This document shows positions 6,764 through 64,000 of a DNA stretch of 64,000 nt, in pieces (the first letter of the stretch is position 1; the number at the start of each line of letters is the position of its first letter). Below the pieces are notes generated by a model. It saw nothing but the letters and a program-made list of their open reading frames with translations. It had not been told where the DNA came from and did no database searches. The position numbers were made by a program, and so were the translations under genes. Source of the stretch: an uncultured Acidobacteriota bacterium. Its GTDB lineage: Bacteria; Acidobacteriota; Thermoanaerobaculia; UBA5066; Gp7-AA6. The stretch covers positions 115,698-179,697 of the forward strand of contig CAWERV010000009.1 in NCBI GenBank assembly GCA_963811425.1, read 5' to 3'.

Positions 6764-8308
6764 TCACTCCTGGTTCGTCTGGAGCGCCTTCACGACGTCG
6801 TCGATGGAGAAGCTGCCGGGCTTCTGGCTCGGCGGGAATTCCTTGAACGTGGCCAGGAACTGGCCGATGTACTGCTGCGCCGGCACGAGCAGGAAGGCGT
6901 GCTCGATGCGCCACTTCGGGTAGCTGATGCTCTCGTGGTCGGCCGTCTCGAACGGGTCGGAGCGGATGTTGAAGAGCTTCGGGAAGCGCAGCAGGACGAA
7001 CGGGTCCTGCCAGACGTCGAGGCCGATGGCGCGCTGTTCCGCGAAGACGATCTTCCACTCGTTGTAGCGCAGGGCCACCAGCGAGCCGTCGTCGTTGAAG
7101 TAGAAGAACTCCTTGCGCGGGTCGGGCGCCTTGCCGGCGAGCGCATCGGTGATGTTGTAGCCGTCCAGGTGCACCTTGAAGGTGCCGTTGCCGACCTTCA
7201 TCCCCTTCAGGAGCTGCTCCTTGACGTCGGGCACGCCGGCGGCGGCGAGCAGCGTCGGGAGCATGTCTTCGTGCGCGAAGAGGTCGTTGTTGACGGATCC
7301 GGGCTTGATCACGCCGGGCCACTTGATGAAGCACGGCACGCGGAACCCGCCCTCCCAGTTGCTCGCCTTCTCGTTGCGGAAGGGCGAGGTGCCGCCGTCG
7401 GGCCACGAGAACTTCTCGGCGCCGTTGTCGGTGGAATACATGACGATCGTGTTGTCGTCGAGGCCGAGCTCCTTCAACTTGTCGAGGAGCTGTCCGACCT
7501 GCGCGTCGTGCTCGACCATGCCGTCGGGGTAGGTGCCGAGACCGGTCTTGCCCTGGCTCTCTTTCTTGAGGTGCGTCCAGATGTGCATACGCGTCGAGTT
7601 CCACCACAGGAAGAACGGCTTGTTCGCCTTCTTCGCGCGCTCGAGGTACTCGAGCGAGGCCTTCGTGATCTCCTCGTCGATCGTCTCCATGCGCTTCTTG
7701 CCGAGCGGGCCGGTGGACTCGATCTTCTGCGTGCCGTCGGGATTGGCCCACGTGTGGATCACGCCGCGCGTCTGGTACTTCTTGATGAGGGCCGGGTCCT
7801 TGAAGTAGTCCGGGTCCTCGAACTCTTCCTCGGCGTTCAGGTGGTAGAGCGAGCCCATGAACTCGTCGAACCCGTGCGCGGTCGGCAGGTGCTCGTCGAG
7901 GTCGCCGAGATGGTTCTTGCCGAACTGCGCCGTCATGTAGCCCTGCGCCTTGAGCAGCTGGGCGATCGTCACGTCGCGCGCCTGGAGGCCTTCCTTGGCG
8001 CCCGGCAGGCCGACCTTGAGCAGGCCCGTCCGGAACCCGACCTGTCCGGTGATGAACGCCGCGCGGCCGGCGGTGCAGCTCTGCTGGCCGTACCAGTCGG
8101 TGAACAGGGCCCCTTCCTTCGCGATGCGGTCGATGTTCGGCGTCCGGTAGCCCATCATGCCCTGGTTGTAGGCGCTGACGTTCCAGTAGCCGATGTCGTC
8201 GCCCCAGATGACGAGGATGTTCGGCTTCTTCGCCTGCGCCCGCAGGATCGCCGGCGCCCACAGCGCGACGACTGCGAAGACCGCGACCCGGGTGAGCGTT
8301 CTTCTCAT
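6764..8308 (-). CDS. Secreted arylsulfatase (formylglycine type)
   Basis: Signal peptide, KPNILVIWGDDIG, SCTAGR (Cys to FGly) motif, GKNHLG, STDNG; GAGGAG RBS before ATG 8308. Confidence 0.9.
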   Translation of the reverse strand: MRRTLTRVAVFAVVALWAPAILRAQAKKPNILVIWGDDIGYWNVSAYNQGMMGYRTPNIDRIAKEGALFTDWYGQQSCTAGRAAFITGQVGFRTGLLKVGLPGAKEGLQARDVTIAQLLKAQGYMTAQFGKNHLGDLDEHLPTAHGFDEFMGSLYHLNAEEEFEDPDYFKDPALIKKYQTRGVIHTWANPDGTQKIESTGPLGKKRMETIDEEITKASLEYLERAKKANKPFFLWWNSTRMHIWTHLKKESQGKTGLGTYPDGMVEHDAQVGQLLDKLKELGLDDNTIVMYSTDNGAEKFSWPDGGTSPFRNEKASNWEGGFRVPCFIKWPGVIKPGSVNNDLFAHEDMLPTLLAAAGVPDVKEQLLKGMKVGNGTFKVHLDGYNITDALAGKAPDPRKEFFYFNDDGSLVALRYNEWKIVFAEQRAIGLDVWQDPFVLLRFPKLFNIRSDPFETADHESISYPKWRIEHAFLLVPAQQYIGQFLATFKEFPPSQKPGSFSIDDVVKALQTNQE

Positions 8309-8569
8309 GCCTGGCTCCTCATGTTTGATGTTGCGTCGGTGCCGGGAAAACTCGGCAGTCTTCCGGATCTGGCGATCGTATCCCGGTCCCGCACTCCCTC
8401 CAAGGGTAGGCCGAGGAGGCCGGCCAGCGGAAAGGACAGGGCGCAGCGCAACGCGGCCGATATCTTTCATCATGCGGTCACCGCGGGGCCGGACATTCAG
8501 CCAGGCGAGTACGGCCGTGCTACCCTTTCGAACGAGAGCGTTCGCATCGTCAAGAACACCAACTCGAGG

Positions 8570-10066
8570 TTGAGAAACCGCCGTACCGCCGCCGTCGCGG
8601 CACTGACCCTCCTTCTCTCGAGCCTTCCCGTCCCCGCACCGGCCGAGGACCGCGCGACGATCCTCTGGAAGGGCGAGTCGTACCCCGTCGGAACGCTCGG
8701 CGGCAAGGAGTTCGTCGTCTCGGATGCCGCGCGGGCGCTTGGCTACACCGTTGCCTCAGACCCGTCGACGGGCGTCCTGACGCTGACCGGCCAGGGCCAC
8801 CAGATCCTGCTCGGCCCCGGCACGGCACAGGTGCCCGTGGACCGCCGCATCATTCCGATCTCGCTGCCGGCGCGGGTCGTCGGCGGTTCGCTCTACGCCC
8901 CCGCGGACTTCTTCGAGAAGGTCCTCTTCCCGCTCGCGGGAGCCGCGGGCAGCTACGATGCGGCAAAACGCGTCTGGACCCTGACGGCCGCCGGGCCGCC
9001 GCCACTTTCGATCGAGGTTGCCGTCGTGCACGTCGCGCCGACGACGCAGGTCGTGCTGCGGCTCTCGGCCTCCGCGAAAACCGCGACGGTGCTTTCCGAG
9101 AAGGGCTTCGCGGTCCGGTTCACCGATACGAAGATCGATCCGCCCTTCCCCGAGAAGAAGTTCGACGATCCGCTCGTGGCCGTGGTCCGCTTCTCGGGCG
9201 ATATCGCGACGGTCGAGTTTCGCGAGCCGAACCAGACGGCGCGCGCATACCCGCTCACGAACCCGGACCGCCTCGTCATCGAAGTCGGCCGCAAGTCCGC
9301 GGCGGCCGCCGCGTCGGTCGAGCCGGCGGCGCCCGCCCCGGCCGCGGTGCCGCTGCTGACGGTCGTCGTCGACCCCGGCCACGGCGGCACCGAGACCGGG
9401 GCGATCGGCCCCGGCGGCCTGCAGGAGAAGGAGGCGACGCTCGAGATCGCGAAGCGGCTCGTCGCCACCTTGCCGAAAGTCCTCTCCTGCCGCGCGGTGC
9501 TCACGCGCGATTCGGACGTCCTCATCCCGCTCGACGACCGCGCCTCGATCGCGAACCACGAGAGAGCGGACCTGTTCCTGTCGGTCCACGCCAATTCCTC
9601 GCGGGCCGCTTCCGCGAAGGGCTCGGAGACGTATTACCTCTCGCTCGAGGCGTCGGACAAGATCGCCCAGGACGTCGCGAAAGAAGAGAACCAGGCCGGC
9701 GCGCCCGCCGGCGGCGGCCCGACGGACGCGGCCGGCAACCACGATCTCGACTTCGTCCTGTGGGACCTGGCTCAGAGCGCGCACCTGAAGGACTCGAGCG
9801 AGCTCGCCGAATCGATCCAGGTCGAGTTGAATGGCGTCTCGGACACGGCCAACCGCGGGATCAAGCAGGCGCCCTTCCGCGTCCTGGTCGGCGCGACGAT
9901 GCCGGCCGTTCTCGTCGAGCTCGCGTTCATCTCGAACGCCGACGAAGAGAAGAGGCTCAAGGATCCGGAGTTCCAGCAGAGGGTCGCCGACGCCGTGGCG
10001 CGGGCCGTCGCCCGCTTCTTCTCGAAGCGGCATCCCGCCGCGGTGCGTCCCACGCCTGTCCCATGA
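8570..10066 (+). CDS. N-acetylmuramoyl-L-alanine amidase (Amidase_3, AmiA/C-like) with N-terminal accessory domains
   Basis: Signal peptide after TTG 8570 (start approximate), [32 protein letters not shown] zinc-amidase motifs. Confidence 0.88.
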
Positions 10067-19905: not shown

Positions 19906-21033
19906 ATGGCTGAAGAAGAATCGGATTCCCGCGAAGGCGAAGGGCTCGAGCTTCCGACCCGCTTCCGGCGCGGCAAGCCCGGAGCGCGGCCGGGCGTCGC
20001 GATCTCCGATCTCGAGACCATGCCGGCGCCAGCCGTCCGCGTCCCGATCACCTGCATCGACTACGCGCCCGACCGCGTCGAGAAGCACAGGATCACCGAC
20101 TTCGACGCCTTCATCAAGAGCCGCCGCGAGGCGTGGGTCAAGGTCCGTTGGATCAACATCGACGGCCTGAACGACCCCGAGACGATCCGCGCACTCGCGA
20201 TCAAGTACGGCCTGCACCCGCTCGCGATCGAAGACATGATGACCACCGGCCTGCGGCCCAAGCTCGAGCCCTACCCGGCGCAGGACGGCCGTCCGCCGCA
20301 TCTCTTCCTCATCATCCGCATGGTCCAGCTCGTCGACGAAGCCCTCGACAGCCAACAAGTCAGCCTGTTCGTCGAGGGCGAGACCGTTCTCACGTTCCAG
20401 GAACAGCCGGGGGACATCTGGGACCCCATCCGGGAGCGCATCGACAAGTCCGGGTCCCGACTGCGGGAGCTCGACGCGAGCTTCCTCGCCTACGCCCTCA
20501 TCGACTCGATCGTCGACCACTGCTTTCCGGTGCTCGAGCACTATGGCGACCGGCTCGAGGAGCTCGAGGACCTCGTCCTCGACCGCCCGGACCGGGGGAC
20601 GATCAACGAGATCCACAAGGTCAAGCGCGAGCTGCTGCTGCTGCGGCGCGCCATCTGGCCGATGCGCGAAGTCGTCAACACGATGCACCGCGAGCCCCAC
20701 GAATGCTTGAGCGACGTCACGCGGACGTACCTGCGGGACGTCTACGACCACCTCATCCAGATCATGGACATCATCGAGACCTACCGCGAGGTCGGCACGA
20801 GCCTGACCGAGACCTACATGACCTCGATGTCGAACCGGCTGTCGGAGGTCATGAAGGTGCTGACGATCATCGGCACCATCTTCATCCCGCTGACCTTCCT
20901 CGCCGGCGTTTACGGAATGAACATGGCGATCCCCGAAATCCACTGGCCGATGGCATACCCCGCCTTCTGGGGCATCTGCGCGGTCCTTGCGGGCGCGATG
21001 ATTTACTGGTTCCGCAAGCGGGACTGGCTCTGA
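19906..21033 (+). CDS. corA: CorA Mg/Co transporter
   Basis: WINIDG, LHPLAIED, YALIDSIVD, EVMKVLTII, FIPLTFLAGVYGMN signature, two C-terminal TMs. Confidence 0.93.
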   Translation: MAEEESDSREGEGLELPTRFRRGKPGARPGVAISDLETMPAPAVRVPITCIDYAPDRVEKHRITDFDAFIKSRREAWVKVRWINIDGLNDPETIRALAIKYGLHPLAIEDMMTTGLRPKLEPYPAQDGRPPHLFLIIRMVQLVDEALDSQQVSLFVEGETVLTFQEQPGDIWDPIRERIDKSGSRLRELDASFLAYALIDSIVDHCFPVLEHYGDRLEELEDLVLDRPDRGTINEIHKVKRELLLLRRAIWPMREVVNTMHREPHECLSDVTRTYLRDVYDHLIQIMDIIETYREVGTSLTETYMTSMSNRLSEVMKVLTIIGTIFIPLTFLAGVYGMNMAIPEIHWPMAYPAFWGICAVLAGAMIYWFRKRDWL

Positions 21034-21274: not shown

Positions 21275-22294
21275 ATGAAACGCATCGGCATTCTCTACGG
21301 CCAGGAACGTTCCTTTCCGCAAGCGCTCGTCGAGCGCATCAACCGCTCCGGCGCCGATGTCATCGCCGAGCCCTTCCGGACCGGCGGCATCTCGCTCGAC
21401 AGCCCGAGGCGCTACGACCTGATCCTCGACCGGATCAGCCAGGACATTCCCTTCTACCGTGCCATCCTGAAGAAGGCGGTCGCCGACGGCACGATCGTCG
21501 TCAACAACCCCTTCTGGTGGACGGCCGACGACAAGTTCTTCAACAACGTCGTCGCGCGCCAGGTCGGCGTGGCCGTTCCGAAGACGGTCATCCTCCCCTC
21601 CAACGAGCATCCGCCGGACACGACCTCGGAGTCCATGTCGAACCTCGTGTTCCCGCTCGAGTGGGACGAGATGTTCCACTACATCGGATTTCCCGCGTAC
21701 TTCAAGCCGTACTCGGGCGGCGGATGGAAGAGCGTCTACCGGGTGACCAACCCGGACGAGTTCTTCGCGGCCTACAAGGACTCCGGCCAGAACGTGATGA
21801 CGCTGCAGGAAGAGATCGTCTTCGACGAGTACTACCGCTGCTACTCGATCGGCCGCAAGTACGTCCACATCATGCGCTACGACCCGCGGCAGCCCCACGC
21901 CAACCGGTACGTCCAGAACGCGCCGCCCATTCCTCCCGCGATGTACGAACGCGTCCACGCGGACTGCCTGAAGCTGATGAATGCCCTCGGCTACGACTTC
22001 TGCACGCTGGAATTCGCGGTCCGGGACGGGATCCCCTACGCCATCGACTTCCTGAACCCGGCGCCGGATGCGGCCGTCGAGTCCGTGGGCCAGGAGAACT
22101 TCAACTGGGTCGTCGAGCACTCCACGAAGTGGCTGATCGAGCGGGTCGCGCAGGACGCGGAGCCGCTGACGAATTACCACTGGGCCACTTACCTCGCCGG
22201 CGGCGAAGGGCCGGCCAAACGCCCGACCGGCCGCACGAAGAAGGCCGCCGCACCGCGGGCGCAGTCGGCGCCCCGTCCGCGCAGCGAGGCCTGA
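21275..22294 (+). CDS. ATP-grasp amidoligase (RimK/glutathione-synthase-like, uncharacterised family)
   Basis: VVNNPFWWTADDKF, YFKPYSGGGWKSVY, LQEEI, EFAVRDGIPYAIDFLNPAPD. Confidence 0.8.
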   Translation: MKRIGILYGQERSFPQALVERINRSGADVIAEPFRTGGISLDSPRRYDLILDRISQDIPFYRAILKKAVADGTIVVNNPFWWTADDKFFNNVVARQVGVAVPKTVILPSNEHPPDTTSESMSNLVFPLEWDEMFHYIGFPAYFKPYSGGGWKSVYRVTNPDEFFAAYKDSGQNVMTLQEEIVFDEYYRCYSIGRKYVHIMRYDPRQPHANRYVQNAPPIPPAMYERVHADCLKLMNALGYDFCTLEFAVRDGIPYAIDFLNPAPDAAVESVGQENFNWVVEHSTKWLIERVAQDAEPLTNYHWATYLAGGEGPAKRPTGRTKKAAAPRAQSAPRPRSEA

Positions 22295-22301
22295 GATCGG
22301 G

Positions 22302-23441
22302 ATGGAGCGGCCCGCCTTCACGCTCGGCGTCGAGGAGGAGTTCCAGATCACCGATCCGGAGACGCGGGAGCTGCGCTCCCACGTCCAGGAGATCCTCGAC
22401 GAGGGCAAACTGGTCCTGAAGGAACGGGTCAAGCCCGAGATGCACCAGTCGGTCATCGAGATCGGCACGGGCATCTGCAAGAACATCCAGGAAGTCCGAC
22501 AGGACGTCGGCGAGCTGCGCACGGAGATCATCCGGGTCGCGAAAAAGAACGGCATGCGCGTCGCCTCGGCCGGCACGCATCCGTTCTCGAACTGGGCCGA
22601 CCAGAAGATCTTCCCCGATCCGCGCTACGACTCGGTCGTCCAGGAGATGCAGCAGCTCGCGCGCGCCAACCTGATCTTCGGCCTCCACGTGCACGTCGGC
22701 ATCTCGGACCGCGCGCTGGCGTTCCAGATCATGAACGAGTCGCTCTACTTTCTGCCGCACATGCTCGCGCTCTCGACGAACTCGCCGTTCTGGCTGGGGC
22801 GCAACACGGGATTGAAGAGCTTCCGCACCAAGGTCTTCGACCGCTTCCCGCGCACGGGCATGCCGGAGCACTTCGAGACGCCGGCCGAGTTCGACGAGTT
22901 CGTCCGGATCCTCGTCCGCACCAACTGCATCGACAACGGGAAGAAGATCTGGTGGGACGTGCGTCCCCACCCCTTCTTCGAGACGATCGAGTTCCGCGTC
23001 TGCGACGTGCCCATGCGCCTCGACGAGACCGTCACCCTGGCCGCCCTCTTCCAGGCGATCTGCGTCAAGCTCTACAAGCTGCGGCTCCAGAACCTGGGGT
23101 TCCGGCGGTACCGGCGCGCCTTGATCCTCGAGAACAAGTGGCGCGCGAGCCGCTACGGCATCGACGGCAAGCTGATCGATTTCGGCAAGGAGATCGAGGT
23201 GCCGTTTCGCAGCCTCATCGCCGAGATGCTCGAGTTCGTCGACGACGTCGTCGACGAATTGGGTTCCCGCAAGGAGGTCGAGGCGGTAAACTGGATCCTC
23301 GAAAACGGGACGGGCGCCGACCGCCAGCTCAAGGTCTACGAGACCTCCGGCGGCGACCTGAAGAAGGTCGTGGACTACATCTGCGAGGAGACCCGGCACG
23401 GCTTGCCGACCGAAACGCCGCTCACCCGCACGGCCTCCTAG
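22302..23441 (+). CDS. ybdK: GCS2/YbdK-family carboxylate-amine ligase
   Basis: FTLGVEEEFQI, EMHQSVIEIGT, SAGTHPF, FGLHVHVGI, ALSTNSPFW, WWDVRPHP, TIEFRVCD. Confidence 0.92.
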   Translation: MERPAFTLGVEEEFQITDPETRELRSHVQEILDEGKLVLKERVKPEMHQSVIEIGTGICKNIQEVRQDVGELRTEIIRVAKKNGMRVASAGTHPFSNWADQKIFPDPRYDSVVQEMQQLARANLIFGLHVHVGISDRALAFQIMNESLYFLPHMLALSTNSPFWLGRNTGLKSFRTKVFDRFPRTGMPEHFETPAEFDEFVRILVRTNCIDNGKKIWWDVRPHPFFETIEFRVCDVPMRLDETVTLAALFQAICVKLYKLRLQNLGFRRYRRALILENKWRASRYGIDGKLIDFGKEIEVPFRSLIAEMLEFVDDVVDELGSRKEVEAVNWILENGTGADRQLKVYETSGGDLKKVVDYICEETRHGLPTETPLTRTAS

Positions 23442-23492
23442 GGGCGCCGGCGACACGGGCGTGAACCGAAGGAGCGCACCCTGACCCACTAC

Positions 23493-24506
23493 TTGAGAGA
23501 GTTGCAGACCACCTACGCGGAGGACCTCGTCCCCGGCGCCCGCAATGCCATCCGCACCTGCCTGCGCGTCAAGCCGTCCGAGCGCGTGGCGATCGTGACC
23601 GACAACGAGACCGAGGAGATCGGCGCCAGCCTGGCCGACCAGGTGCGCGAGGTCGGAGCCGCGATCGAGGTCCACGTCATGGAGGACTACGGGCCGCGCC
23701 CGATGCTGACGCTGCCGCCCCAGATCGAGGCCGCGCTCGAGCGCGCCGACGTCTCGATCTACGCGGGCCAGCCCAAGCAGGGAGAGCTCGCCTTCCGCCG
23801 CGCCCTGACCGGCATCATCGACCGGCGCCAGATCCGGCACGCGCACATGGTTTCCATCTCGCACCGCATCATGGTCGAGGCCATGCGGGCGAATTTCGAC
23901 GACGTGGACGCGATCTCGACCCGCCTGCTCGAGCGCGCGCTCAAGGCGAAGAAGATCCTCGCCACCTCGCCCGGCGGGTCCCGCGTCGAGGCGACCTTCG
24001 ACCCGGCCATCAAGTGGCTGAAGACCTCCGGGATCATCTCGACGTCCAAATGGGGCAACCTTCCGGGCGGCGAGGTCTTGACCGCTCCTGCCCGCGTGGA
24101 CGGCGTCTACGTGGCCGACGGCGTCGTCGGGGACTACCTCTGCGCCCGCTACGGCGACCTGAAGGACAACCCGCTCACGGTGACGATCGAGAACAGCCGC
24201 ATCATGGACGTCCAGTGCAAGCGGCAGGACCTCGTCGTGGACTTCCTCGCCTACACCGCCACCGACGAGAACTCCAACCGCGTCGGCGAGTTCGCCATGG
24301 GCACCAACATCGCCCTGCACGACGTCATCGGCAACATCCTCCAGGACGAAAAGATCCCGACGCTGCACGTCGCCTTCGGCCACCCGTACTCCGAGCACAC
24401 CGGCGCTCCGTGGCGGAGCACGACGCACATCGACATCGTCGGCCGCAGCTTCGACATCTGGTTCGACGGCGACCAGGTGATGGCGCGCGGGAAGTACCTC
24501 ATCTGA
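23493..24506 (+). CDS. M29 (thermophilic metalloprotease / AmpS-like) aminopeptidase
   Basis: GNLPGGEV, DGVYVADG, VGEFAMGTN, ILQDEK, HVAFGHP, HIDIV; TTG start. Confidence 0.8.
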   Translation: MRELQTTYAEDLVPGARNAIRTCLRVKPSERVAIVTDNETEEIGASLADQVREVGAAIEVHVMEDYGPRPMLTLPPQIEAALERADVSIYAGQPKQGELAFRRALTGIIDRRQIRHAHMVSISHRIMVEAMRANFDDVDAISTRLLERALKAKKILATSPGGSRVEATFDPAIKWLKTSGIISTSKWGNLPGGEVLTAPARVDGVYVADGVVGDYLCARYGDLKDNPLTVTIENSRIMDVQCKRQDLVVDFLAYTATDENSNRVGEFAMGTNIALHDVIGNILQDEKIPTLHVAFGHPYSEHTGAPWRSTTHIDIVGRSFDIWFDGDQVMARGKYLI

Positions 24507-24572
24507 CCTTTTGGCGGAACACGCCGCCGAAAGGTCGTTCCGAGGAGCAGGGCGAAGAGGGATGACCGCTGC

Positions 24573-25764
24573 ATGATCCCGGACCTCCGCCGCGCCTATA
24601 ACGCCGCCTTCTCCGACGAGAGATACCGCTCCTACAAGCGCCGCCTCGCACAGCGCGGTGGGGTGGAGATCCCCTTTCACCTCGCCGAGACGCCATTCTT
24701 CCTTCCGCCCGAACTGCGCGACGCGATGGTCGCGGCTTCGCTCGACATCTTCCAGCAGCTCTCGACGCCCGAGGCGCTCCACCGGTCGCTCTCCGCCGTG
24801 CCCGCGCGAGCTCGACGTGCCCGGCTGCGACGAGCTGCCGGTCTTCGCCGTCACCGACTTCGCCGTCACGAAGGATTCCAGCGGAAAGCCCGTGCCGAAG
24901 CTGATCGAGCTGCAGGCCTTCCCGACGCTGTACGCCTTCCAGCTCGCGCAGTGCGAGGAGCTCGCGCGGCTGTGCCCCGAGGGCGATCGGCTCGACTGGT
25001 ACCTCTCCGGCCTCGACGCCGCGGGCTACAAGCGCGTCGTCGGCGAGGCGATCCTCTCGGGCCTCGACCCGGAGGAGGTCGTCCTGCTCGACCTCGACCC
25101 GCTGCACCAGAAGACGGCCATCGACTTCGCGTTCACGGAGCAGCTCTGGGGCGTGAAGGCCGTCGATCCGTCGGAAATCGAGAAGCGCGGGCGAGAGCTC
25201 TGGTACCGCCGGAATGGCAAACAGCTGCGCATCCGGCGCATCTACAACCGCCTCATATTCGACGAGCTCGAGGCCACCGGCGCGAAACTCCCATTCGACC
25301 TGACTTCCCGCATCGACGTCTCGTGGGCGGGACACCCCAACTGGTACTTCCGCTGGAGCAAGCACTGTCTGCCGGAGTTGAAGCACCCGGCCGTGCCGGA
25401 GTCGTTCTTCCTCTCCGACTTGCCTGAGGTGCCGAAGGACCTCGAGAACTGGGTCCTGAAACCGCTCTTCTCGTTCGCCGGCTCCGGGGTCAAGGTCGAG
25501 GTCACGCCCGAGGACGTCGCGGCCGTCCCGCCGGACCAGCGCGCCCACACGCTGCTCATGCGCAAGATCGAGTACGCACCCGCGATCGCAACGACCGACG
25601 GCAACTTCTCGAAGGTCGAGGTGCGCGTCATGTTCGTCTGGAAAGACGGCAAGCCCCTGCCCGTCATCACGCTCGCCCGCCTGTCGCAGGGCAAGATGAT
25701 GGGCGTCAACTACAACAAGGACAAGACGTGGGTCGGATCCTCCGGGTGCCTCTGGCCGGCGTAG
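24573..25764 (+). CDS. Second putative amidoligase (glutathionylspermidine-synthase / circularly permuted ATP-grasp-like), frameshift near 24803
   Basis: MIPDLRRAYNAAFS N-terminus joins the frame with PKLIELQAFPTLY, RIYNRLIFDEL, HPNWYFRWSK, WVLKPLFSFAGSGV, EVRVMF. The fold assignment is inference. Confidence 0.65.
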
Positions 25765-25806
25765 ATACGTTCTCGGCTCCGGAGGGGCAATCCTGCGCCG
25801 CCCGCC

Positions 25807-26520
25807 TCAGGGCACGTAGCTCCGAATCTGCTGCTTCCACCACGGCCAGTCGTGGCCGTACGGCGCGTCCCAGACGCTGCCGCGGTTGCGGATCCCCTTC
25901 TCGTTCAGGATCCGCAGCATGTCGGTCGTGCCCGAGAGAATGTTGTCGGTCTGGCCCGTCACGATGCAGTGGTCCATCGTGTTGAGCTTACCGACCCACT
26001 CGTCGGTCATGTTCGGAACGTTCGCCGTCGGGCAGTGGAAGTAGCAGAGCTCGTCCCAGTAGCCGTCGAGAAAGTTGTGGATGTCGTACTTGCCGGAGAA
26101 CGCGACGACCTTGTCGATCACGTCCGGGTGCCGCAAGCCGAAGTTTGCCGCGTGGTACGCGCCGAAGGAGGCGCCCAGCGTCGCGATCCGCGCACCGGTC
26201 CCGCCCTTCGCGCGTACGAACGGGACGACCTCGTGGTAGACGTACTGGTCGTACTGGTCGTGCCGGCGGATCCGCTCGGCCGGGTGGCGGTGCTTCGCGT
26301 AGAAGCTCTCCTCGTCCACGCTGTCGACACAGGCGATCTGGATGGCGCCCGACTCGATCAGGTCGCCCACAGCCCCGATCAATCCGAAATCCTCGTTCTG
26401 GTAGTAGCGCCCGACCGAGGTCGGGAACCAGATCATCGGCCGGCCCGCGTGGCCGAACCACAGCATTTCCATCCGGCGCCCCAGGATCGGCGAGTCCCAG
26501 GCGAGGTGTTCGCGGTTCAT
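25807..26520 (-). CDS. Esterase-family alpha/beta hydrolase
   Basis: SPILGRRM, FPTSVG, GASFG nucleophile elbow, FSGKYD, GHDWPWW; converges on the ligase cluster. Confidence 0.88.
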   Translation of the reverse strand: MNREHLAWDSPILGRRMEMLWFGHAGRPMIWFPTSVGRYYQNEDFGLIGAVGDLIESGAIQIACVDSVDEESFYAKHRHPAERIRRHDQYDQYVYHEVVPFVRAKGGTGARIATLGASFGAYHAANFGLRHPDVIDKVVAFSGKYDIHNFLDGYWDELCYFHCPTANVPNMTDEWVGKLNTMDHCIVTGQTDNILSGTTDMLRILNEKGIRNRGSVWDAPYGHDWPWWKQQIRSYVP

Positions 26521-27182: not shown

Positions 27183-27257
27183 CGGGGCGTAGCGCAGCGG
27201 TAGCGTACCTGCTTTGGGAGCAGGTGGTCGCCGGTTCGATCCCGGCCGCCCCGACCA
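27183..27257 (+). tRNA. tRNA-Pro(TGG)
   Basis: Acceptor CGGGGCG/CGCCCCG + A + CCA, anticodon arm CCTGC-TTTGGGA-GCAGG, T arm GCCGG-TTCGATC-CCGGC, C1:G72/A73 Pro identity; GATAAT -10-like box upstream. Confidence 0.93.
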
Positions 27258-33098: not shown

Positions 33099-35059
33099 TG
33101 CAGCGGCAGCGGCACGGCCCGCAGGAAGGCGTTCAGGGCCGCGCCCACGGCGATCGCGAACGGAAACACGAACGCGGCGATGGCCGTGGCGGTCTTCCAG
33201 CCGCGTTCCTTGACGATCATGAAGAAGTTCGCGATGCACGGGATGAACAGCGTGATCGTGACCATCGCCACGAGCGACTGGATCGCGTCGATGCGCCCGT
33301 GCCGCGCCATGTCGAAAAGGCCCGCCGCGCCGAAGTCGCGCCTCAGGAATCCGACGACGAAGGCAGGCGCCGTCTCCGAGGGAAGCCCCAGGACTCCCGT
33401 CAGGAGGGGCCTCGTCGCGCGCTCGACGAGGCCGAGGAGTTTGAGCCGGTCGGCCACGAAGAGAATCGCGGTGCCGAGCACGAAGAGCGGGACGGCCTCG
33501 CGCAGGTACCACTCGATGCGCGCGAGCGTCTTGACGAGCAGGTTGCCCGGGCGCGGCAGGCGCAGGGGCGGCAGCTCGAGGACGAAGTCGCCCGAACGGC
33601 CCGGCAGGATTTTCGCCGCGAGCTTCCCGACGAGAAACAGCACGGCGAGCACGATGAACGCCCAGATCCCGAGCGCCAGCGGCGACAGGCCGCCGAGCAT
33701 GGCGAGGATCACGGTCAGCTGCGCCGAGCACGGGACGCCGAGCGCGAGCAGCAGGATCACGATCAGCCGCTCCTTGGGGGTCTCGAGAATCCGCGTCGTC
33801 AGCGTCGCCATCGTGTCGCAGCCCAGGCCCAGCACCATCGGCAGGACCGCCTTGCCGTTCAAGCCCATGGACTTGAAGACGCGGTTGACCATGACCGCCA
33901 GGCGCGGCAGGTAGCCCGAGTCCTCGAGGATGCCGAAGGCGATGAAGAACGTGCCGACGATCGGCAGCACGAGCGCGAGCGAGTAGGCCAGGGCCATCGT
34001 CACGAACCCGTAAGGCCCGACGAAGAAGTCGCGCACGATCGGCCACGGGATGACGGCATCGGCCAGCCGCGTGGCCGCCGGGCTCACGATCTTCGCGAAG
34101 AACCCGTTCTCCAGAAGGTCCACGAGCGTCTTCGCGCCGAAGACGCCGACGAAGAGATAGGAGAGGTAGAGCGCCGCGAGCAGCACGGGCACGCCCCAGA
34201 CCGGGTGGGTCGTGGCGCGGTCGAGACGGGCGACCAGCGCGCGCGTCGGAGCGGCGGATGTCGCCTTGCGCGTCACGACCTCGCGGACGATCTGCCCGGC
34301 CATGCGCAGGCGCGCCTCCTGGATGACGTAGCCGAGGTCCTCGCGGTAGAGACGGGACAGGCGCGCGCGGATGGCCTCGAGGCCCGAGAGCGCGTCGTCG
34401 GCCATGTGCGCCCGCAGCCACGGTGTGAGGGTCTGGTCGCCCGCGAGCGCCGCGAGAGCCAGCGCTCTCGGCGAGAAGGAGCCGGCGGGCATCAGCGGGA
34501 TCGCCGCATCGAGGGCCCGCTCGATCACGTCCGGATAGGCGACGGCCAGAGCCGCCGGCCGCGCGTTCTCGATGACCGCCGACAGCCGCGCGACGCCCTC
34601 GTGCCGCACCGCCACGGTCTCGACCACGTCCACGCCCAGGCGCTCCGCGAGCCGCGCGGCGTCGATCGTGATCCCCCGGGCCCGCGCCTCGTCCGTCATG
34701 TTCACGCAGAAGACGAACGGCAGGCCCGTTTCCGCGACCTCGAGCGCGAGGGCGAGGGCGCGCTCGAGGTTCTTCGCATCGCCGACGAGGACGACGGCCG
34801 CGCCGTCGGCCGAGAGGAGAATGTCGCGCGTCACGCGCTCGTCCTCCGAGGACGGGATGAGCGAGGCGGCCCCCGGCGTGTCGCGCACCGAGACGCGCCG
34901 CCCGGCGACCACCGCCGCGCCCTCCGCGACCTCCACGGTCGTCCCCGGATAGTTGGAGACGGTGACGTACGTGCCCGTCAGCGCGCCGAAGAGGACGCTC
35001 TTGCCGACGTTCGGATTGCCGACGAGGACGACCCCCGCCGGGCCGCGCGAAGCTGCCAC
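33095..35059 (-). CDS. feoB: Ferrous iron transporter B
   Basis: GNPNVGKS, SNYPGTTVE, DTPG, NMTD G-motifs; LEDSGYLPR, LGLGCD, FVLELPPLRLP membrane motifs; GTG start approximate. Confidence 0.95.
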   Translation of the reverse strand: MAASRGPAGVVLVGNPNVGKSVLFGALTGTYVTVSNYPGTTVEVAEGAAVVAGRRVSVRDTPGAASLIPSSEDERVTRDILLSADGAAVVLVGDAKNLERALALALEVAETGLPFVFCVNMTDEARARGITIDAARLAERLGVDVVETVAVRHEGVARLSAVIENARPAALAVAYPDVIERALDAAIPLMPAGSFSPRALALAALAGDQTLTPWLRAHMADDALSGLEAIRARLSRLYREDLGYVIQEARLRMAGQIVREVVTRKATSAAPTRALVARLDRATTHPVWGVPVLLAALYLSYLFVGVFGAKTLVDLLENGFFAKIVSPAATRLADAVIPWPIVRDFFVGPYGFVTMALAYSLALVLPIVGTFFIAFGILEDSGYLPRLAVMVNRVFKSMGLNGKAVLPMVLGLGCDTMATLTTRILETPKERLIVILLLALGVPCSAQLTVILAMLGGLSPLALGIWAFIVLAVLFLVGKLAAKILPGRSGDFVLELPPLRLPRPGNLLVKTLARIEWYLREAVPLFVLGTAILFVADRLKLLGLVERATRPLLTGVLGLPSETAPAFVVGFLRRDFGAAGLFDMARHGRIDAIQSLVAMVTITLFIPCIANFFMIVKERGWKTATAIAAFVFPFAIAVGAALNAFLRAVPLPLQ

Positions 35060-40918: not shown

Positions 40919-43714
40919 ATGAATCTCCGGAAGAAGACCGGGCTCGGCCTGTTCGTGGGTTTGATCGCGGCGGGGAGCCGTCTTGCGGACGCGCAGACGG
41001 GGCTCGCACCGAAACCGGCGGCGAAGGCAAAGCCCGCGGCCGCGTCCGCCACGCTCACCGCGCCCGTCAAGGTGACGTCGGTCGAAGGCATCACCGAGTA
41101 CCGCCTCGGCAACGGCCTGCGCGTCCTGCTCTTTCCCGACCCGACCAAACCGACGATCACCGTGAACATCACGTACATGGTCGGCTCCCGGCACGAAAGC
41201 TACGGCGAGACGGGCATGGCGCACCTGCTCGAGCACCTCGTCTTCAAGGGCACGCCGAACCATCCCAACATTCCACAGGAGCTGACCGCCCACGGTGCGC
41301 GGCCAAACGGGTCGACCTGGTTCGACCGCACGAACTACTTCGAGACTTTCCAGGCGACCGACGAGAACCTGAAGTGGTCGCTCGAGCTCGAGGCGGACCG
41401 GATGATCAACTCGTACATCGCGAAAAAGCACCTCGATAGCGAGATGACCGTCGTGCGCAACGAGTTCGAGATGGGTGAGAACGATCCGGCTTCGATCCTC
41501 GAAGAGCGGGTCCTCTCGACGGCGTTCCTCTGGCACAACTACGGCAAGTCCACGATCGGCGCAAAGGCCGACCTCGAAAACGTTCCGATCGACCGGCTCC
41601 AGAACTTCTACCGGACCTTCTACCAGCCGGACAATGCGGTGCTTCTCGTCGCCGGCAAGTTCGACGAGGCGAAGACCCTTGCCCTCGTCAACTCGATCTT
41701 CGGAAAGATCCCGAAGCCGACGCGTCCCCTTCCGGTTTTCTACACGCTCGATCCGACGCAGGACGGCGAGCGCAGCGTCACGCTCCAGCGCGTGGGCGAC
41801 GTGCAGGCGATCGCGGCGGCGTACCACGTCCCCTCCGGAACGGATCCGTCGTCGGGCGCGGTCAACCTGCTCGAGCAGGTCCTCACGGACACGCCCTCGG
41901 GCCGCCTGTACAAGGCGCTCGTCGAGACGAAGAAGGCCACGTCCGTGGGCGGCTACTTCATGGAGCTCCACGATCCCGGCTTCGTGATCTTCAACGCGGA
42001 GGTCCGCCAGGAACAGGACGTCGAGGAAACGAAGACGGCCTTCGTCCGGACGCTCGACGCCGCGGGCGGCTCCGCGCCGATCACGAAGGAAGAGGTCGAG
42101 CGCGCCCGGGCGACGCTCCTGAAGAACATCGACCTGATGTTGAACAGCGCCGACCGCGTGGGCCTGAACCTCTCCGAGTACATCGGCCAGGGCGACTGGC
42201 GGCTCTTCTTTCTGAACCGGGACCGAATCCGCACCGCCACGACGGAAGACGTGCAGAAGGCCGCGGCCGCGTACTTGAAGCCCTCCAACCGGACCCTTGG
42301 CGTCTTCATCCCGACGGCCAGGCCGGACCGTTCCGAGATCCCGGCGCCCGTGGCCGCGGCGGCCGTCCTCCAGGACTACAAGGGCAACGCGGCCATGGCG
42401 GCCGGCGAAGCCTTCGACCCGTCGCCGGCCAACATCGAGGCGCGCACGAAGCGTTCGGAGCTGCCCAACGGCCTCAAAATCGCGCTCCTCTCGAAGAAGA
42501 CGCGCGGCGGCACGGTCGTCGCGACGCTGACGGTGCGCTTCGGCGACGAGAAGCGCCTCTTCGACAAGTCGACCGTCGCGGATCTCACGGCCGACATGCT
42601 CATGCGCGGCACGGCGAAGCACACGCGCCAGCAGATCAAGGACGAGCTCGACCGGCTGAAGGCCCGCATGACCGTCACGGGCCGCGCCACCCAGGCCAAC
42701 GTGACGATCGAGACCATCCGTGAGAATCTGCCCGCCGTGCTCGCCCTCGCCGCAGAAGTCCTCCGCGAGCCGGCGTTTCCGGCCAAGGAGTTCGACGAGC
42801 TCCAGCAGGAGAACCTCGCGCAGATCGAGCAGCAGCGCAGCGAGCCCGATGCGCTCGCCCCGAACACCTACCAGCGCCACATGAACCCGTACCCGAAGGG
42901 CGACGTGCGCTACGTGGACACGTTCGACGAATCGATCGCGAGCTACAAGGCCGCGACGCTCGACCAGGCGAGGAAGTTCTATGGTGACTTCTACGGCGCT
43001 TCCACGGGCGAGCTCGCCATCGTTGGCGACTTCGACGACGCCGCGGCGGCGAAGCAGGCCGCGGAGCTCTTCGGCTCCTGGAAGAGTCCGGCACGCTTCG
43101 AGCGCGTGGCCCAGCCCTACCAGGACGTCGCGGCCGAGAACAAGGAGCTCGAGACGCCGGACAAGGCCAATGCGTTCTTCATCGCGGGCCAGAATCTTCC
43201 GCTCGGCGACGAAGACCCCGACTATCCGGCCCTCGTGCTCGGCAACTACATGCTCGGCGGCGGCTTCCTGAACTCGCGCCTCGCCGTCCGCATCCGCCAG
43301 AAGGACGGCCTCTCCTACGGCGTCGGGTCGCAGTTCCAGGCCTCGCCGCTCGACAAGGCCGGCGCGTTCACGGCCTACGCGATCTACGCGCCGCAGAACG
43401 AGGCGAAGCTCGAGGCCGCGTTCCTTGAAGAGGTCGCCCGCGTCTTGAAGGACGGGTTCGAGGCGAAAGAGATCGCCGAGGCCAAGTCCGGCTGGCTCCA
43501 GTCGCGCCAGGTCACGCGCGCGCAGGATGCGCAGCTCGCGCGCACGCTCGCGACCGATCTCTACATCCAGCGCACCCTCGCCTGGGACGCCGCCCTCGAA
43601 AAGAAGGTCGAGGCGCTGACGGGCGAGCAGATCGTGGCCGCGATGCGCAAGCACCTGGATCCCACGAAGATGACGATCGTGAAGGCGGGGGATTTCGCCA
43701 GGAAAACACCGTGA
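40919..43714 (+). CDS. Secreted M16 (pitrilysin-family) zinc protease, two-module
   Basis: Signal peptide, GMAHLLEHL (HxxEH), NGSTWFDRTNY, VVRNE, SRL..RIRQKDGLSY. Confidence 0.93.
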   Translation: MNLRKKTGLGLFVGLIAAGSRLADAQTGLAPKPAAKAKPAAASATLTAPVKVTSVEGITEYRLGNGLRVLLFPDPTKPTITVNITYMVGSRHESYGETGMAHLLEHLVFKGTPNHPNIPQELTAHGARPNGSTWFDRTNYFETFQATDENLKWSLELEADRMINSYIAKKHLDSEMTVVRNEFEMGENDPASILEERVLSTAFLWHNYGKSTIGAKADLENVPIDRLQNFYRTFYQPDNAVLLVAGKFDEAKTLALVNSIFGKIPKPTRPLPVFYTLDPTQDGERSVTLQRVGDVQAIAAAYHVPSGTDPSSGAVNLLEQVLTDTPSGRLYKALVETKKATSVGGYFMELHDPGFVIFNAEVRQEQDVEETKTAFVRTLDAAGGSAPITKEEVERARATLLKNIDLMLNSADRVGLNLSEYIGQGDWRLFFLNRDRIRTATTEDVQKAAAAYLKPSNRTLGVFIPTARPDRSEIPAPVAAAAVLQDYKGNAAMAAGEAFDPSPANIEARTKRSELPNGLKIALLSKKTRGGTVVATLTVRFGDEKRLFDKSTVADLTADMLMRGTAKHTRQQIKDELDRLKARMTVTGRATQANVTIETIRENLPAVLALAAEVLREPAFPAKEFDELQQENLAQIEQQRSEPDALAPNTYQRHMNPYPKGDVRYVDTFDESIASYKAATLDQARKFYGDFYGASTGELAIVGDFDDAAAAKQAAELFGSWKSPARFERVAQPYQDVAAENKELETPDKANAFFIAGQNLPLGDEDPDYPALVLGNYMLGGGFLNSRLAVRIRQKDGLSYGVGSQFQASPLDKAGAFTAYAIYAPQNEAKLEAAFLEEVARVLKDGFEAKEIAEAKSGWLQSRQVTRAQDAQLARTLATDLYIQRTLAWDAALEKKVEALTGEQIVAAMRKHLDPTKMTIVKAGDFARKTP

Positions 43715-58174: not shown

Positions 58175-58912
58175 ATGAGGCGGTCGGCGCGCCGGTATAG
58201 GCTTTGCGCCAACGTGGCGCTCGCGGCCGGTTCCGTTGATAAAAATGTATATAGGAATAGATAGTATTTATTATTATTAAGAAGAAGAATTATGGTTGAA
58301 GAAATTATATAGTGAAAGTAAAGATGATAATGTGCGATCAGGTGACGAGGAGAGCTCCAGGCCGGCGCGGCCATCGGGTGGCCCCGGAAGGGCGCGAGCC
58401 GATCCGCGAGCTCGGACAGGCCCGAGAGCGGCGCCTGCAGGACCGCGGGCGCGAAGTAGTCGCGCACGACGTGCAGGGCCGTCCCGACTGTTTCGTAGCT
58501 ATATAAGGGTTCCTCGCCGGCGACGATCTCTCCCCACCCCTCGAGACCCTCCGCCTCCATCTTCACGAGAACGATCAGGCGCGACCGCACCCGGCCGAAG
58601 CTCGTCTCGAAGGGCTCGACGAGGTCCAGGCGGAGAAGCCGGAGCTCGATCGCCTCGATCCGGAGGGGCGCGCTCGTCAGCGGCGCCGCGTAGGGAGGGC
58701 TCAATCGGACCGTCCGATCGGAGCGCGGCGCCGTTGCCCGCGGGCTCTCCCGTCTTCGACGTCAAACAACATTTGTTGCCGCAAAGTACCAGAGCGCCGC
58801 GCGAAGCGTCAAGAAGGTACCAGCATGGGCCAATCCCAACGGGCCTGAAAGGCTCGCTGCATCATCTGTTGCAATGAGGCGGTCGGCGCGCCGGTATAGG
58901 CTTTGCGCCAAC

Positions 58913-61489
<2,577 letters not shown>

Positions 61490-61493
<4 letters not shown>

Positions 61494-64000
61494 CGGTCGC
61501 GACAGGATCGAGGCTCGGACCGTACGAGATCCTCGGCCAGATCGGGGCCGGCGGGATGGGCGAGGTCTACCGCGCGAAGGATCCACGCCTCGGGCGCGAG
61601 GTCGCGATCAAGGTGCTGCCGCCGTCCTTCTCGCAGGACGCGGATCGGCTGCGGCGATTCGAGCAGGAGGCGAAGGCCGCGGGCGTCCTCAACCACCCGA
61701 ACATCACGGCCGTGTACGACATCGGCTCGCATGACGGCGCGCCGTACGTCGTCCAGGAGCTGCTCGAGGGCGAGACGCTGCGCCTGGCGCTCGCGAGCGG
61801 GAAGCTGCCGCAGCGCAAGGTCATCGACTACGCGCTGCAGATCGCGCACGGCCTCTCCGCCGCGCACGACAAGGGCATCGTCCACCGGGACCTGAAGCCC
61901 GAGAACCTCTTCGTCACGAACGAGGGACGCGTCAAGATCCTCGACTTCGGCCTCGCCAAGCTCACGCAGGTGGGCGAGGGCTCGGGCCCGCAAACCAACC
62001 TGCCGACCGCGGCCGGGACCGAGCCCGGCATGGTCATGGGCACGATCGGCTACATGTCGCCCGAGCAGATCAAGGGCAAGCCCGCCGACGCGCGCTCGGA
62101 CATCTTCTCGTTCGGCGCGATCTTCTACGAGATGCTCTCGGGCAAGCGCGCGTTCCACGCCGACTCCGCCGGCGAAACGATGGCCGCGATCCTCAAGGAG
62201 GAGCCGGCGGATCTCTCCGTCACCAACCAGAACATCTCGCCCGGGATCGAGCGGATCGTGCGCCACTGCCTCGAGAAGAATCCCGAGCAGAGGTTCCACT
62301 CGGCGCACGATCTCGCGTTCGACATCGAGGCCCTCTCGGGGACCACAGGCCAGGCGGCGGTCATTCCGTCGCGAGGGCGCGTGCCGCTCGTGCCGGCGCT
62401 CCTGGTTGCGGCGGGCCTCCTCGCCGGCGCAGGCTTCGCCTACTTTCTCCTGCGCGGCCGGACGGGAGCCGCGGCGGCGGCCGGATCGAGCGCGACGTAT
62501 CGCCGGTTGACCAACATGCCCGGGGCCGAGAACTCCCCTTCGCTCTCGCCCGACGGCCAGACGCTCGCCTTCGTCCACCGCTCCGGCAAGAAGCCGGACA
62601 TCTGGATCCAGCGCGCGGGAGGCCGCAATCCCATCGACCTGACGCCCGACTGCGATCGCGAGAGCTACTCGCCGGCGTTCTCTCCCGACGGCACCCTCAT
62701 CGCCTACGGCGCCCAGTGCGGCCAGGGAGGCCTCTTCGTCATGGGCGCCACGGGAGAGAACTCGCGCCGGCTCGTCAACGTCGGAAGCAATCCGGCGTGG
62801 TCTCCCGATGGAAAGGAGATCCTGTACTCCACCGAGCTCGTCGCCGGCCCCTACGGCCGGACGGGAACGAGCGAGATCTGGGCGGTCGAGCTCGCGAGCG
62901 GCAAGACACGCAAGCTCTCCGGGACCTTCGACGCCATCCAGCCGAACGTTTCGCCGCACGGACTGCGCGTGGCGTTCTGGGCGCTGCCGCCCGGCGGCAG
63001 CCAGCGCGACATCTGGACGATGCCCTACAAGGGCCTCGGCGCCGGCGAAAAGCCGGTGCCGGTGACGCAGGATGCCGCCGTCGACTTCAACCCGGTCTGG
63101 GGGCCGGACGGCCGGACTCTCTACTTCCTGTCCAACCGCAGCGGCACGATGAACCTCTGGCGCGCCCCGATCGACGAGGCCACCGGGCACACGCTCGGCG
63201 AGGCCACGCCGGAGATGCTGCCCGCGCGCGAGGTGGGCGGCCTCTCGTTCTCGCGGGACGGGCGCTACGCGGCGTACGTCGTCCGCGAGAACACCTTTTC
63301 GATCGATCGCCTCGCCTTCGACGCGAACGGCGCGCTCACGGGAAAGCCCGAGCCGGTCCTCGAGAGCTCCCAGGAAATGGCGGATTTCGACGTCTCGGCG
63401 GACGGCAAGTTCCTCGCCTTCGACTCGCGCGGCGGGGCGCAGGACGACCTCTTCCTGCTCGAGAGCGACGGCAGGAACCTGCGCCAGCTCACGGATGACG
63501 TGCCCCGGGACCGCGCGCCGAACTTCTCGCCCGACGGCAAACGCATCGCCTTCCATTCGGATCGCGACGGCCGCTACCAGATCTGGACGATCGAGCGCGA
63601 CGGGAGCGGCATGAAGCCGCTGTCCAAGGCCACGGACTTGATCATCGAGGCGCACTGGTCTCCCGACGGCCATGCCATCGCCGTCAACAGCGGCCACAAC
63701 AGCTCGATCCTCCGGCTCGACGACAAGGGCGCGCTCGCCCGGGTCGAGCCCATTCCCGCCCCGACGCCGGAGACGTTCTTCTATCCGTTGGCGTGGACCG
63801 CCGACGGGAGCACTCTCGTGGGTTCCCTCGTGCGGCTCAGCGATCTCACCGGCCAGGCTGTCGCCGTCTATGCCCCCGGACCGGGCGCCGTCGTGAAGAC
63901 GGTGCCCAACACGGAATCGCCCTCCCGCGTTCGCCGCGGGGCGGTCATGGGCAACCGCTATCTCCTTTATGCAGAGATTGACGGGCTGTTCGTCATGGAT
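61490..64000 (+). CDS. Second Ser/Thr kinase with TM and PD40/TolB-like propeller (partial, runs off the window)
   Basis: GTGA overlap; manual translation [65 protein letters not shown] / PAFSPDG / PAWSPDG / PNFSPDG repeats. The frame was spot-checked as the same at 62402 and at 64000. Confidence 0.9.

Follow-up and report, generated by a model that had tools for sequence, protein, structure and literature searches.

The subject of this analysis is a group of five adjacent genes, here called g1 to g5, occupying positions 21275 to 26520 of a 64,000-nucleotide stretch of DNA (the window) from contig CAWERV010000009.1 in the genome bin GCA_963811425.1 of an uncultured Acidobacteriota bacterium of the class Thermoanaerobaculia. 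Four of the genes follow each other on the plus strand: g1 (21275-22294), an open reading frame (ORF) of 339 amino acids, g2 (22302-23441, 379 amino acids), g3 (23493-24506, 337 amino acids with a TTG start) and g4 (24573-25764), which is split over the two ORFs 24573-25427 and 24658-25764 and was read from 24573 to approximately 24803 in the first of them and from there to 25764 in the second. The fifth ORF, g5 (25807-26520, 237 amino acids), lies on the minus strand and converges with g4. All five were located where a first-pass annotation, made from the letters of the sequence, had placed them, and its picture of three amide-bond ligases grouped with a peptidase and an esterase is borne out by the families and folds reported below, the ligase folds being unrelated. 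The gaps between g1 and g2, g2 and g3, and g3 and g4 are 7, 51 and 66 nt, respectively, and 42 nt separate the stop codons of the convergent g4 and g5; therefore there is no space for a small precursor ORF within the cluster, in agreement with the earlier remark that no precursor peptide was evident. By inspection, signal peptides and membrane parts were absent from all five proteins, none of the five matched a PADLOC defence model, and no riboswitch or leader RNA was found upstream of the cassette in the window region and at seven loci.

Families and folds of the five proteins

On sequence grounds the clear case is g2, which is a carboxylate-amine ligase of the YbdK/GCS2 family. It matches PF04107 with 211.7 bits (cut-off 21) over profile positions 1-290 of 291, it exceeds the cut-off of NF010039 (541.7 bits against 371), and its homology to Escherichia coli YbdK (1r8g, GCS2 PF04107) extends over the full length of the protein (E 4e-49, residues 5-362). 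The E. coli ybdK gene is not known to sit in such a cassette, and the physiological substrate is not established for YbdK either. According to PMC13674229, which cites Lehmann 2004, ligation of gamma-Glu-Cys is the sole activity that has been measured in the YbdK family.

The sequence of g5 is that of an alpha/beta-hydrolase of the PF00756 esterase family with a predicted Ser-Asp-His triad. The PF00756 score is 40.1 bits against a cut-off of 22, and among the homologues (active-site conservation was judged on 23 to 53 homologues per cassette protein) S118 in the G-x-S-x-G motif is at least 90% conserved while D192 and H223 are invariant. The g5 family profile finds the esterase 5vol (E 3.9e-13), then FphF (6vh9) and CE1/feruloyl esterases, and its match to the S-formylglutathione hydrolase 7yvt is weak (E 0.0066). 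In g3 the match to PF02073 (46.5 bits, cut-off 27) covers the C-terminal half only, at profile positions 210-353 of 406. The g3 family profile matches the M29 aminopeptidase AmpS (1zjc) with E 1.8e-6 and, more weakly, the M29-fold dioxygenase NicX (7cn3, E 2.8e-4), so an activity other than that of a peptidase is possible for g3. The metal ligands of AmpS are reportedly Glu, Glu, His, His and Asp. The invariant g3 residues E194, E266 and H292 align with the AmpS chain residues E256, E322 and H351, and the invariant H312-I-D314 matches the H-x-D pair of AmpS. At 337 amino acids g3 is shorter than the approximately 410 of the full M29 architecture, and in its N-terminal half no more than one stretch of 5.8 bits is matched to AmpS. 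We therefore predict that g3 encodes an active dinuclear metallohydrolase of a short M29 type, with a reduced N-terminal domain and with all five metal ligands present. Both hydrolases, the M29-type g3 and the Ser-Asp-His enzyme g5, have intact active sites.

For g1, no Pfam match was obtained even at E-values up to 10. Its score against the RimK model TIGR00768 (21.3 bits, E 1.5e-4) is under the curated cut-off of 143.4, and a weak sequence match to Ddl (3r23) has an E-value of 2e-3. An AlphaFold model built from 35 homologues (pLDDT 85.7) was compared with known structures by Foldseek, which returned ArgX, LysX, RimK and Ddl/VanA at E-values of about 1e-14 to 4e-12 and target-normalised TM scores of up to 0.77, with the graspetide ligases PsnB and MdnC also among the fold neighbours. 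The model thus identifies g1 as a divergent ligase with a three-domain ATP-grasp fold of the RimK/LysX/Ddl type. K144-P145, E246, D258 and N261 are invariant in the 35 homologues, with the motif GGGW coming after K144-P145, and by motif spacing alone these residues may be likened to the ATP-binding lysine loop and the Mg2+ ligands of RimK and Ddl. The C-terminal tail, approximately residues 305-339, is disordered, basic and rich in Pro, Ala, Lys and Arg, and is not present in the Bacteroidota homologues, which have 313-320 amino acids. Homologues of g1 carry the JGI label "glutathione synthase/RimK-type ligase-like ATP-grasp enzyme".

When the two frames of g4 are joined, a protein of 397 amino acids results. 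For g4 there was no match at E-values up to 10 among the Pfam and NCBIfam models, including PF03738 (GSP_synth), PF03917 (GSH_synth_ATP) and PF14403 (CP_ATPgrasp_2). More than 6500 relatives of about 396 amino acids exist, and an exhaustive search placed the family in 1152 clusters at 50% identity; the relatives listed have no Pfam domain, "hypothetical protein" is the only name given to any of them by a source, and those with an organism label are mostly from Thermoanaerobaculia. Structure prediction was carried out on an intact homologue, P0013, and gave a model with a pLDDT of 95.2 (53 sequences). Its top 22 Foldseek matches in the PDB, at E-values from 4e-13 to 4e-7 and TM scores of 0.45-0.62, comprise human and yeast glutathione synthetase, homoglutathione synthetase, the putative glutathionylspermidine synthetase (GspS) 3n6x, Cp1B, YgiC and trypanothione synthetase (TryS), and the next match has an E-value of 0.08. 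At the sequence level the family profile finds YgiC (E 0.0018) and 3n6x (E 0.015) and none else. The residues E112, Q114, K263, K296, E349, R351 and R369 are invariant in 53 homologues; judged by sequence order alone, E112-L-Q114 (LIELQ) comes ahead of K296 (VLKPLFSFAGxGV), which would agree with the permuted arrangement of these ligases, where the E-x-N/Q motif of the Mg site precedes the Lys loop. As judged from the model, g4 is a glutathione-synthetase/GspS-like ligase at the fold level that lies outside every catalogued hidden Markov model (HMM) family, and the label "GSP-synthase-like" given to it in the first-pass annotation agrees with this fold. Some relatives depart from the common length: P0254 is a fusion in which a sodium:solute symporter (SSF, PF00474) precedes the g4-family part, and P0253, P0256, P0287 and P0304 have N-terminal extensions of 150-190 amino acids with a signal-peptide-like start, which is odd for an ATP-dependent ligase. 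Wrong gene starts may account for these extended and fused forms.

Conservation and variation of the cassette across phyla

A scan of species-representative genomes gave at least 597 relatives of g4, and the best 80 loci together with two others, 82 in all, were analysed. Within a few kb of g4, tblastn found g2 at 61 of these loci, g1 at 59, g5 at 56 and g3 at 48, and among the 73 loci with enough flank g1 and g2 were both present at 60. The cassette is found in at least four phyla, Acidobacteriota, Bacteroidota, Ignavibacteriota and Eremiobacterota. It is clear from these numbers that the co-occurrence is far above chance and that the genes are co-conserved; a lack of such conservation and a g4 that is not ATP-grasp-like had been named beforehand as grounds for giving up the cluster, and neither was found. 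All five genes are present in 42 of 60 clusters, which is the standard make-up in Acidobacteriota, and the version in the window can no longer be called unusually complete.

Terriglobia, Bacteroidota and Ignavibacteriota have the genes on a single strand, usually arranged as g5-g1-g2-g3-g4. In the window's clade of Thermoanaerobaculia g5 is inverted and lies downstream of g4, and in a further clade (L064, L075 and L081) it is inverted and lies upstream of g1. The converging esterase gene pointed out in the first-pass annotation is therefore real in the window, but it reflects a local inversion, while in Terriglobia and Bacteroidota g5 comes first and on the same strand. The linkage also survives unrelated insertions, namely a toxin-antitoxin pair and Ser/Thr kinases in L001, L004 and a second copy of the cassette on contig C10 of the same bin. 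The kinases inside or beside the cassette at these three places belong to a repeated family: a stretch of approximately 850 nt encoding a Ser/Thr protein kinase domain (PF00069) is present in more than 50 copies in the genome at 66-87% identity. Copies lie in the window at 58874-59938 and about 61490-62343, and on contig C9, which holds the window, at 33300-34200, 41800-42650 and 182000-182900; the copy at 58874 covers only profile positions 1-173 of 263 and looks frame-broken.

At 11 Bacteroidota and Ignavibacteriota loci the g3 slot is filled by a class-I glutamine amidotransferase (GATase)-like protein, in which Cys123, His226 and Glu228 are invariant. This non-orthologous displacement between an M29 enzyme and a GATase-type enzyme with a Cys-His-Glu triad points to amide hydrolysis as an integral step, and the exchange of M29 for a GATase-type enzyme hints that the bond being cut may be a gamma-glutamyl amide. 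At three loci (L055, L066 and L076) the slot is empty and g2 directly adjoins g4; an apparent g2-g4 fusion in L076 was rejected, as a stop codon separates the two abutting genes. At L081 the ORF in the g3 slot is not M29-like and may be spurious.

Other genes near the cassette were considered as parts of it and rejected. The neighbours of g4 where it stands alone (LysR, RuvX, YceG and SpoIIE) look like local synteny, and so do a PIG-L protein, an amino-acid permease and the Ser/Thr kinases in Terriglobia. In some Terriglobia (L025, L042, L047 and L079; L028, L031, L036, L041 and L080) a small gene of either of two unrelated types is inserted between g1 and g2, the types being a membrane protein of about 115-135 amino acids and a soluble protein of about 120-136 amino acids with the motif KTVDEYLA...ISYGIPMFKY; the window cassette has neither. 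A putative fusion of g1 to a Mur ligase in L064, a long-read metagenome-assembled genome from the same kind of project, turned out to be two separate genes, a g1 whose reading is distributed over three frames and, after it, an ordinary murF (TIGR01143, 389 bits). The case offers no tie to the chemistry of cyanophycin or of Mur ligases. At that locus (7023-7906 and 7333-9432) murF lies between g1 and g4, and g2 and g3 are missing, so that the cassette looks rearranged or decaying, unless the assembly is at fault. In the window itself the cassette is preceded by a CorA gene (19906-21033), and directly 3' of it lies a tRNA gene (27183-27254, plus strand, 67 bits) that overlaps a spurious 276-amino-acid ORF on the minus strand.

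The interrupted g4 frame and the quality of the assembly

Alignment to relatives places a one-base insertion, which shifts the g4 frame by +1, at about 24798-24808 on the plus strand (within cccgcgcgag); the letters of the window at this point are gcc gtg ccc gcg cga gct, and the relatives have AVP-xx-LDVPGC. The relatives of g4 listed are all intact at about 396 amino acids. The closest contig found, L087, shares the CorA and P-type ATPase flanks of the window and has 95% amino-acid identity in g1 to g3; its g4 is intact and aligns with the window over 1201 nt at 91.5% DNA identity with exactly one gap. In L087 it is g5 (7361-8070, minus strand) that is split over two frames.

The bin contains a second complete cassette on contig C10 (485900-497900), in which g1, g2, g3 and g5 have 87-92% amino-acid identity to those of the window and extra DNA separates g4 from both g3 and g5. 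Its g4 is broken at the same codon as in the window (about 491750-491800 of C10), by a missing base (-1) instead of an extra one (+1). Contig C9 and the end of C10 are collinear over long stretches, with approximately 80-85% DNA identity, the bin is about 90% complete with 4.6% contamination, and the 14 other g4-positive genomes sampled from the phylum have one g4 copy each, all intact. Instead of a duplication, the bin may thus contain a mixture of two related populations.

The assembled sequence does contain the frameshift, and the recurrence of the break at one codon in both copies might suggest that g4 is a true pseudogene and that the cassette is decaying in this organism. We consider this improbable. 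Both halves of g4 are 76-87% identical to the intact P0013 and contain no further stops, the two breaks are of opposite sign, and the site lies between conserved blocks in the most variable part of the gene, where a long-read consensus from mixed strains would be error-prone. Other conserved genes of the bin are also split, namely those for a third esterase (C11) and a flavoprotein reductase (C23), and every relative sampled carries a single intact copy. The g1 of L064, divided among three frames, is a comparable case in another long-read assembly. Judging from these alignments, the g4 breaks are probably errors of the consensus in this variable stretch; assembly error is likely because the relatives are intact, including the one with 91.5% identity, and because the assembly has other frameshifts. 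A heuristic based on the GC content of codon positions (GC3 phase), which caught two of four known frameshift cases, gave 172 frameshift-like junctions in the 4.4-Mb assembly. Homopolymers are not enriched at these 172 junctions, and a systematic base-calling error at CGTGC-type motifs was rejected as an explanation, the motif value being 0.34 at the junctions against a background of 0.27. Besides the g4 site, five of the heuristic junctions fall in the window, at about 10678, 53571, 54310, 56750 and 60165, and if they are real, further genes of the window are split by assembly errors. A frameshift at this position would lead annotation pipelines to call g4 a pseudogene.

Proposed function and its alternatives

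The closest known systems are the biosynthetic pathways of glutathione, glutathionylspermidine and trypanothione, which resemble the cassette in using successive ATP-dependent carboxylate-amine ligations by GCS-type and GS/GspS-fold enzymes (GS being glutathione synthetase), together with a hydrolase that reverses a step, and to whose enzymes the fold of g4 is matched (2hgs, 1m0w, 2vpm and 3n6x). They differ from it in that g4 is outside the GS/GspS Pfam models, in that the cassette adds a RimK/LysX-type ligase and an esterase, and in that no glutathione-dependent enzymes are evident in the host, which carries a BshC-like gene. The putrescine (Puu) and ergothioneine (Egt) pathways, in which gamma-glutamylation is transient, likewise couple a GS- or GCS2-type ligase to an amidohydrolase with a Cys nucleophile, by which glutamate is later removed (PuuA/PuuD and EgtA/EgtC), and the Bacteroidota form of the cassette has an intact class-I GATase-type triad, but these pathways have one ligase each and oxidative or C-S-forming enzymes, none of which is found in the cassette. 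Gene groups combining ATP-grasp and GCS2/GS-like ligases with peptidases of unrelated folds and alpha/beta-hydrolases were reportedly described by Iyer, Abhiman, Burroughs and Aravind in Mol Biosyst in 2009, with novel peptides or tags predicted as their products.

Among single enzymes, the stand-alone GspS-type ligases YgiC and YjfC of E. coli (7uk8) have about 390 amino acids, close to the length of g4, and YgiC gives both the best target-normalised TM score to g4 (0.62) and the profile match mentioned above; identity to g4 is, however, approximately 14%. The genes of YgiC and YjfC are not known to have YbdK, RimK-like or hydrolase partners. Glutathione and homoglutathione synthetase, which share the fold of g4, also join a carboxylate to an amine. 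According to PMC12568646, YgiC and YjfC are peptide-spermidine ligases that join a peptide carboxylate to an amine (reference 48 therein), GspS and YgiC/YjfC add spermidine to glutathione or peptides, and Cp1B, from E-64 biosynthesis, links a dicarboxylic acid to an amino acid.

We find it fairly probable that the five genes are a single functional cassette for the ATP-dependent, ribosome-independent assembly and the hydrolytic turnover of a small amide-linked, peptide-like metabolite, probably of the gamma-glutamyl type. In each of the three ligase families, a carboxylate is activated as an acyl-phosphate before being transferred to an amine. It appears as if g2 could act first and form a carboxylate-amine bond of the gamma-glutamyl type, after which g4 and g1 would extend a C-terminal carboxylate, each by one more residue or by an amine cap. 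Glutathione synthetase, GspS/YgiC, RimK and LysX act in this way: glutathione synthetase adds Gly to a C-terminal carboxylate, and RimK, LysX and ArgX extend a C-terminal Glu. The amidohydrolase in the g3 slot and the g5 esterase might then trim or recycle the product or an intermediate, and the simplest outcome would be the stepwise build-up of a compound of three or four amide-linked units.

Several observations weigh against this proposal. The order of the ligase steps is purely inferred, and g1 and g4 both score under the cut-off of every curated family model. The hydrolase may be accessory, since g3 is absent at the three loci with an empty slot. The cassette is accessory and patchy within the phylum, g4 being present in 15 of 121 genomes of an even phylum sample, and in Myxococcota and Blastocatellia/Cytophagia there are clades in which g4 stands by itself with housekeeping genes as neighbours, so that g4 can work without the other cassette genes. 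As regards the reading of the g4 breaks as assembly errors, their position at the same codon in both copies is not predicted by a simple random-error model.

A special case of the proposal is that the product would be a thiol of low molecular weight, which might resemble glutathione or be a conjugate of a thiol with an amine, as glutathionylspermidine is, with g2 as the gamma-Glu-Cys ligase, g4 catalysing the glutathione-synthetase/GspS step and g5 acting as a thioesterase. The measured activity of the YbdK family and the best fold matches of g4, to glutathione synthetases, GspS and TryS, agree with this idea, and so does the lack of the canonical enzymes, neither GshA (PF04262) nor GshB (PF02955) giving a hit in the host genome, which is about 90% complete. 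PF00756 furthermore includes S-formylglutathione hydrolases, the weak match of the g5 profile to 7yvt being of this kind, but the best matches of g5 are carbohydrate/feruloyl esterases and FphF. The same genome shows no sign that glutathione is used: no glutathione reductase reached the cut-off (the best TIGR01421 score was 237 bits against 556), and GST_N (PF13417) gave one marginal match of 23.4 bits. It does contain a BshC-like gene (C28:141492-142754; TIGR03998, 229 bits, E 9e-68, just below the cut-off of 265.8), which suggests bacillithiol or a derivative of it as the thiol of the organism. The absence of glutathione-pathway markers together with the BshC-like gene weakens the idea of a new thiol in this genome, and we regard a thiol product as unlikely. 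Of the products listed in the first-pass annotation (a small non-ribosomal peptide, a thiol or gamma-glutamyl metabolite, a storage polymer, or a protein tag), the thiol has thus lost ground here, and the list is otherwise hardly narrowed.

The ligases could instead modify a protein or a ribosomal peptide, by tagging its C-terminus or by working on a carrier protein as RimK does on S6 and LysX/ArgX on LysW, with the hydrolases removing the tag. The closest folds to g1 act on protein C-termini (ArgX, LysX and RimK) or are graspetide ligases (PsnB and MdnC), and in this clade g1 ends in a basic, disordered tail. The Bacteroidota homologues are, however, without that tail, the gaps of 7-66 nt leave no room for a small ORF in the cluster, no conserved small partner gene was seen across phyla, the small genes that some Terriglobia have between g1 and g2 fall into two kinds, each restricted to its lineage and unrelated to the other, and the YbdK and GS/GspS relatives work on small molecules, all of which makes tagging quite unlikely. 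Even lower do we rate the synthesis and degradation of a poly-amino-acid storage or capsule polymer resembling cyanophycin or polyglutamate. RimK-type enzymes do polymerise glutamate, cyanophycin metabolism has pairs of a ligase and a peptidase, and an S51 peptidase gene lies upstream of the cassette in one Ignavibacteria locus. This S51 neighbour is nevertheless secreted and lineage-specific, no Mur-ligase/CphA-type domain occurs in the cassette (the one apparent case being the separate murF), the five proteins lack signal peptides and membrane parts, and three different ligases suit stepwise assembly better than polymerisation.

Within the proposed assembly of a small amide-linked metabolite, a more specific version can be put forward tentatively and with considerable doubt: an undescribed pathway, common to abundant soil phyla, that would lead through three successive acyl-phosphate ligases to a gamma-glutamyl-type tri- or tetrapeptide or to a peptide-amine conjugate, for instance a peptidyl-polyamine, to be turned over by the amidohydrolase and the esterase of the cassette, with the g4 family as a new branch of the GS/GspS enzymes acting on a new substrate pair. 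The enzyme superfamilies are known, the combination of the five genes is not characterised, and the g4 family is uncatalogued; a literature search found no paper on the five-gene cassette. With regard to annotation, Pfam misses both g1 and g4. That three amide ligases and two hydrolases are kept together across phyla points to a specific, apparently undescribed metabolite in bacteria that are dominant in many soils. Although its members number in the thousands, the g4 family is without a Pfam model, and its fold and its conserved set of partners now make its function testable.

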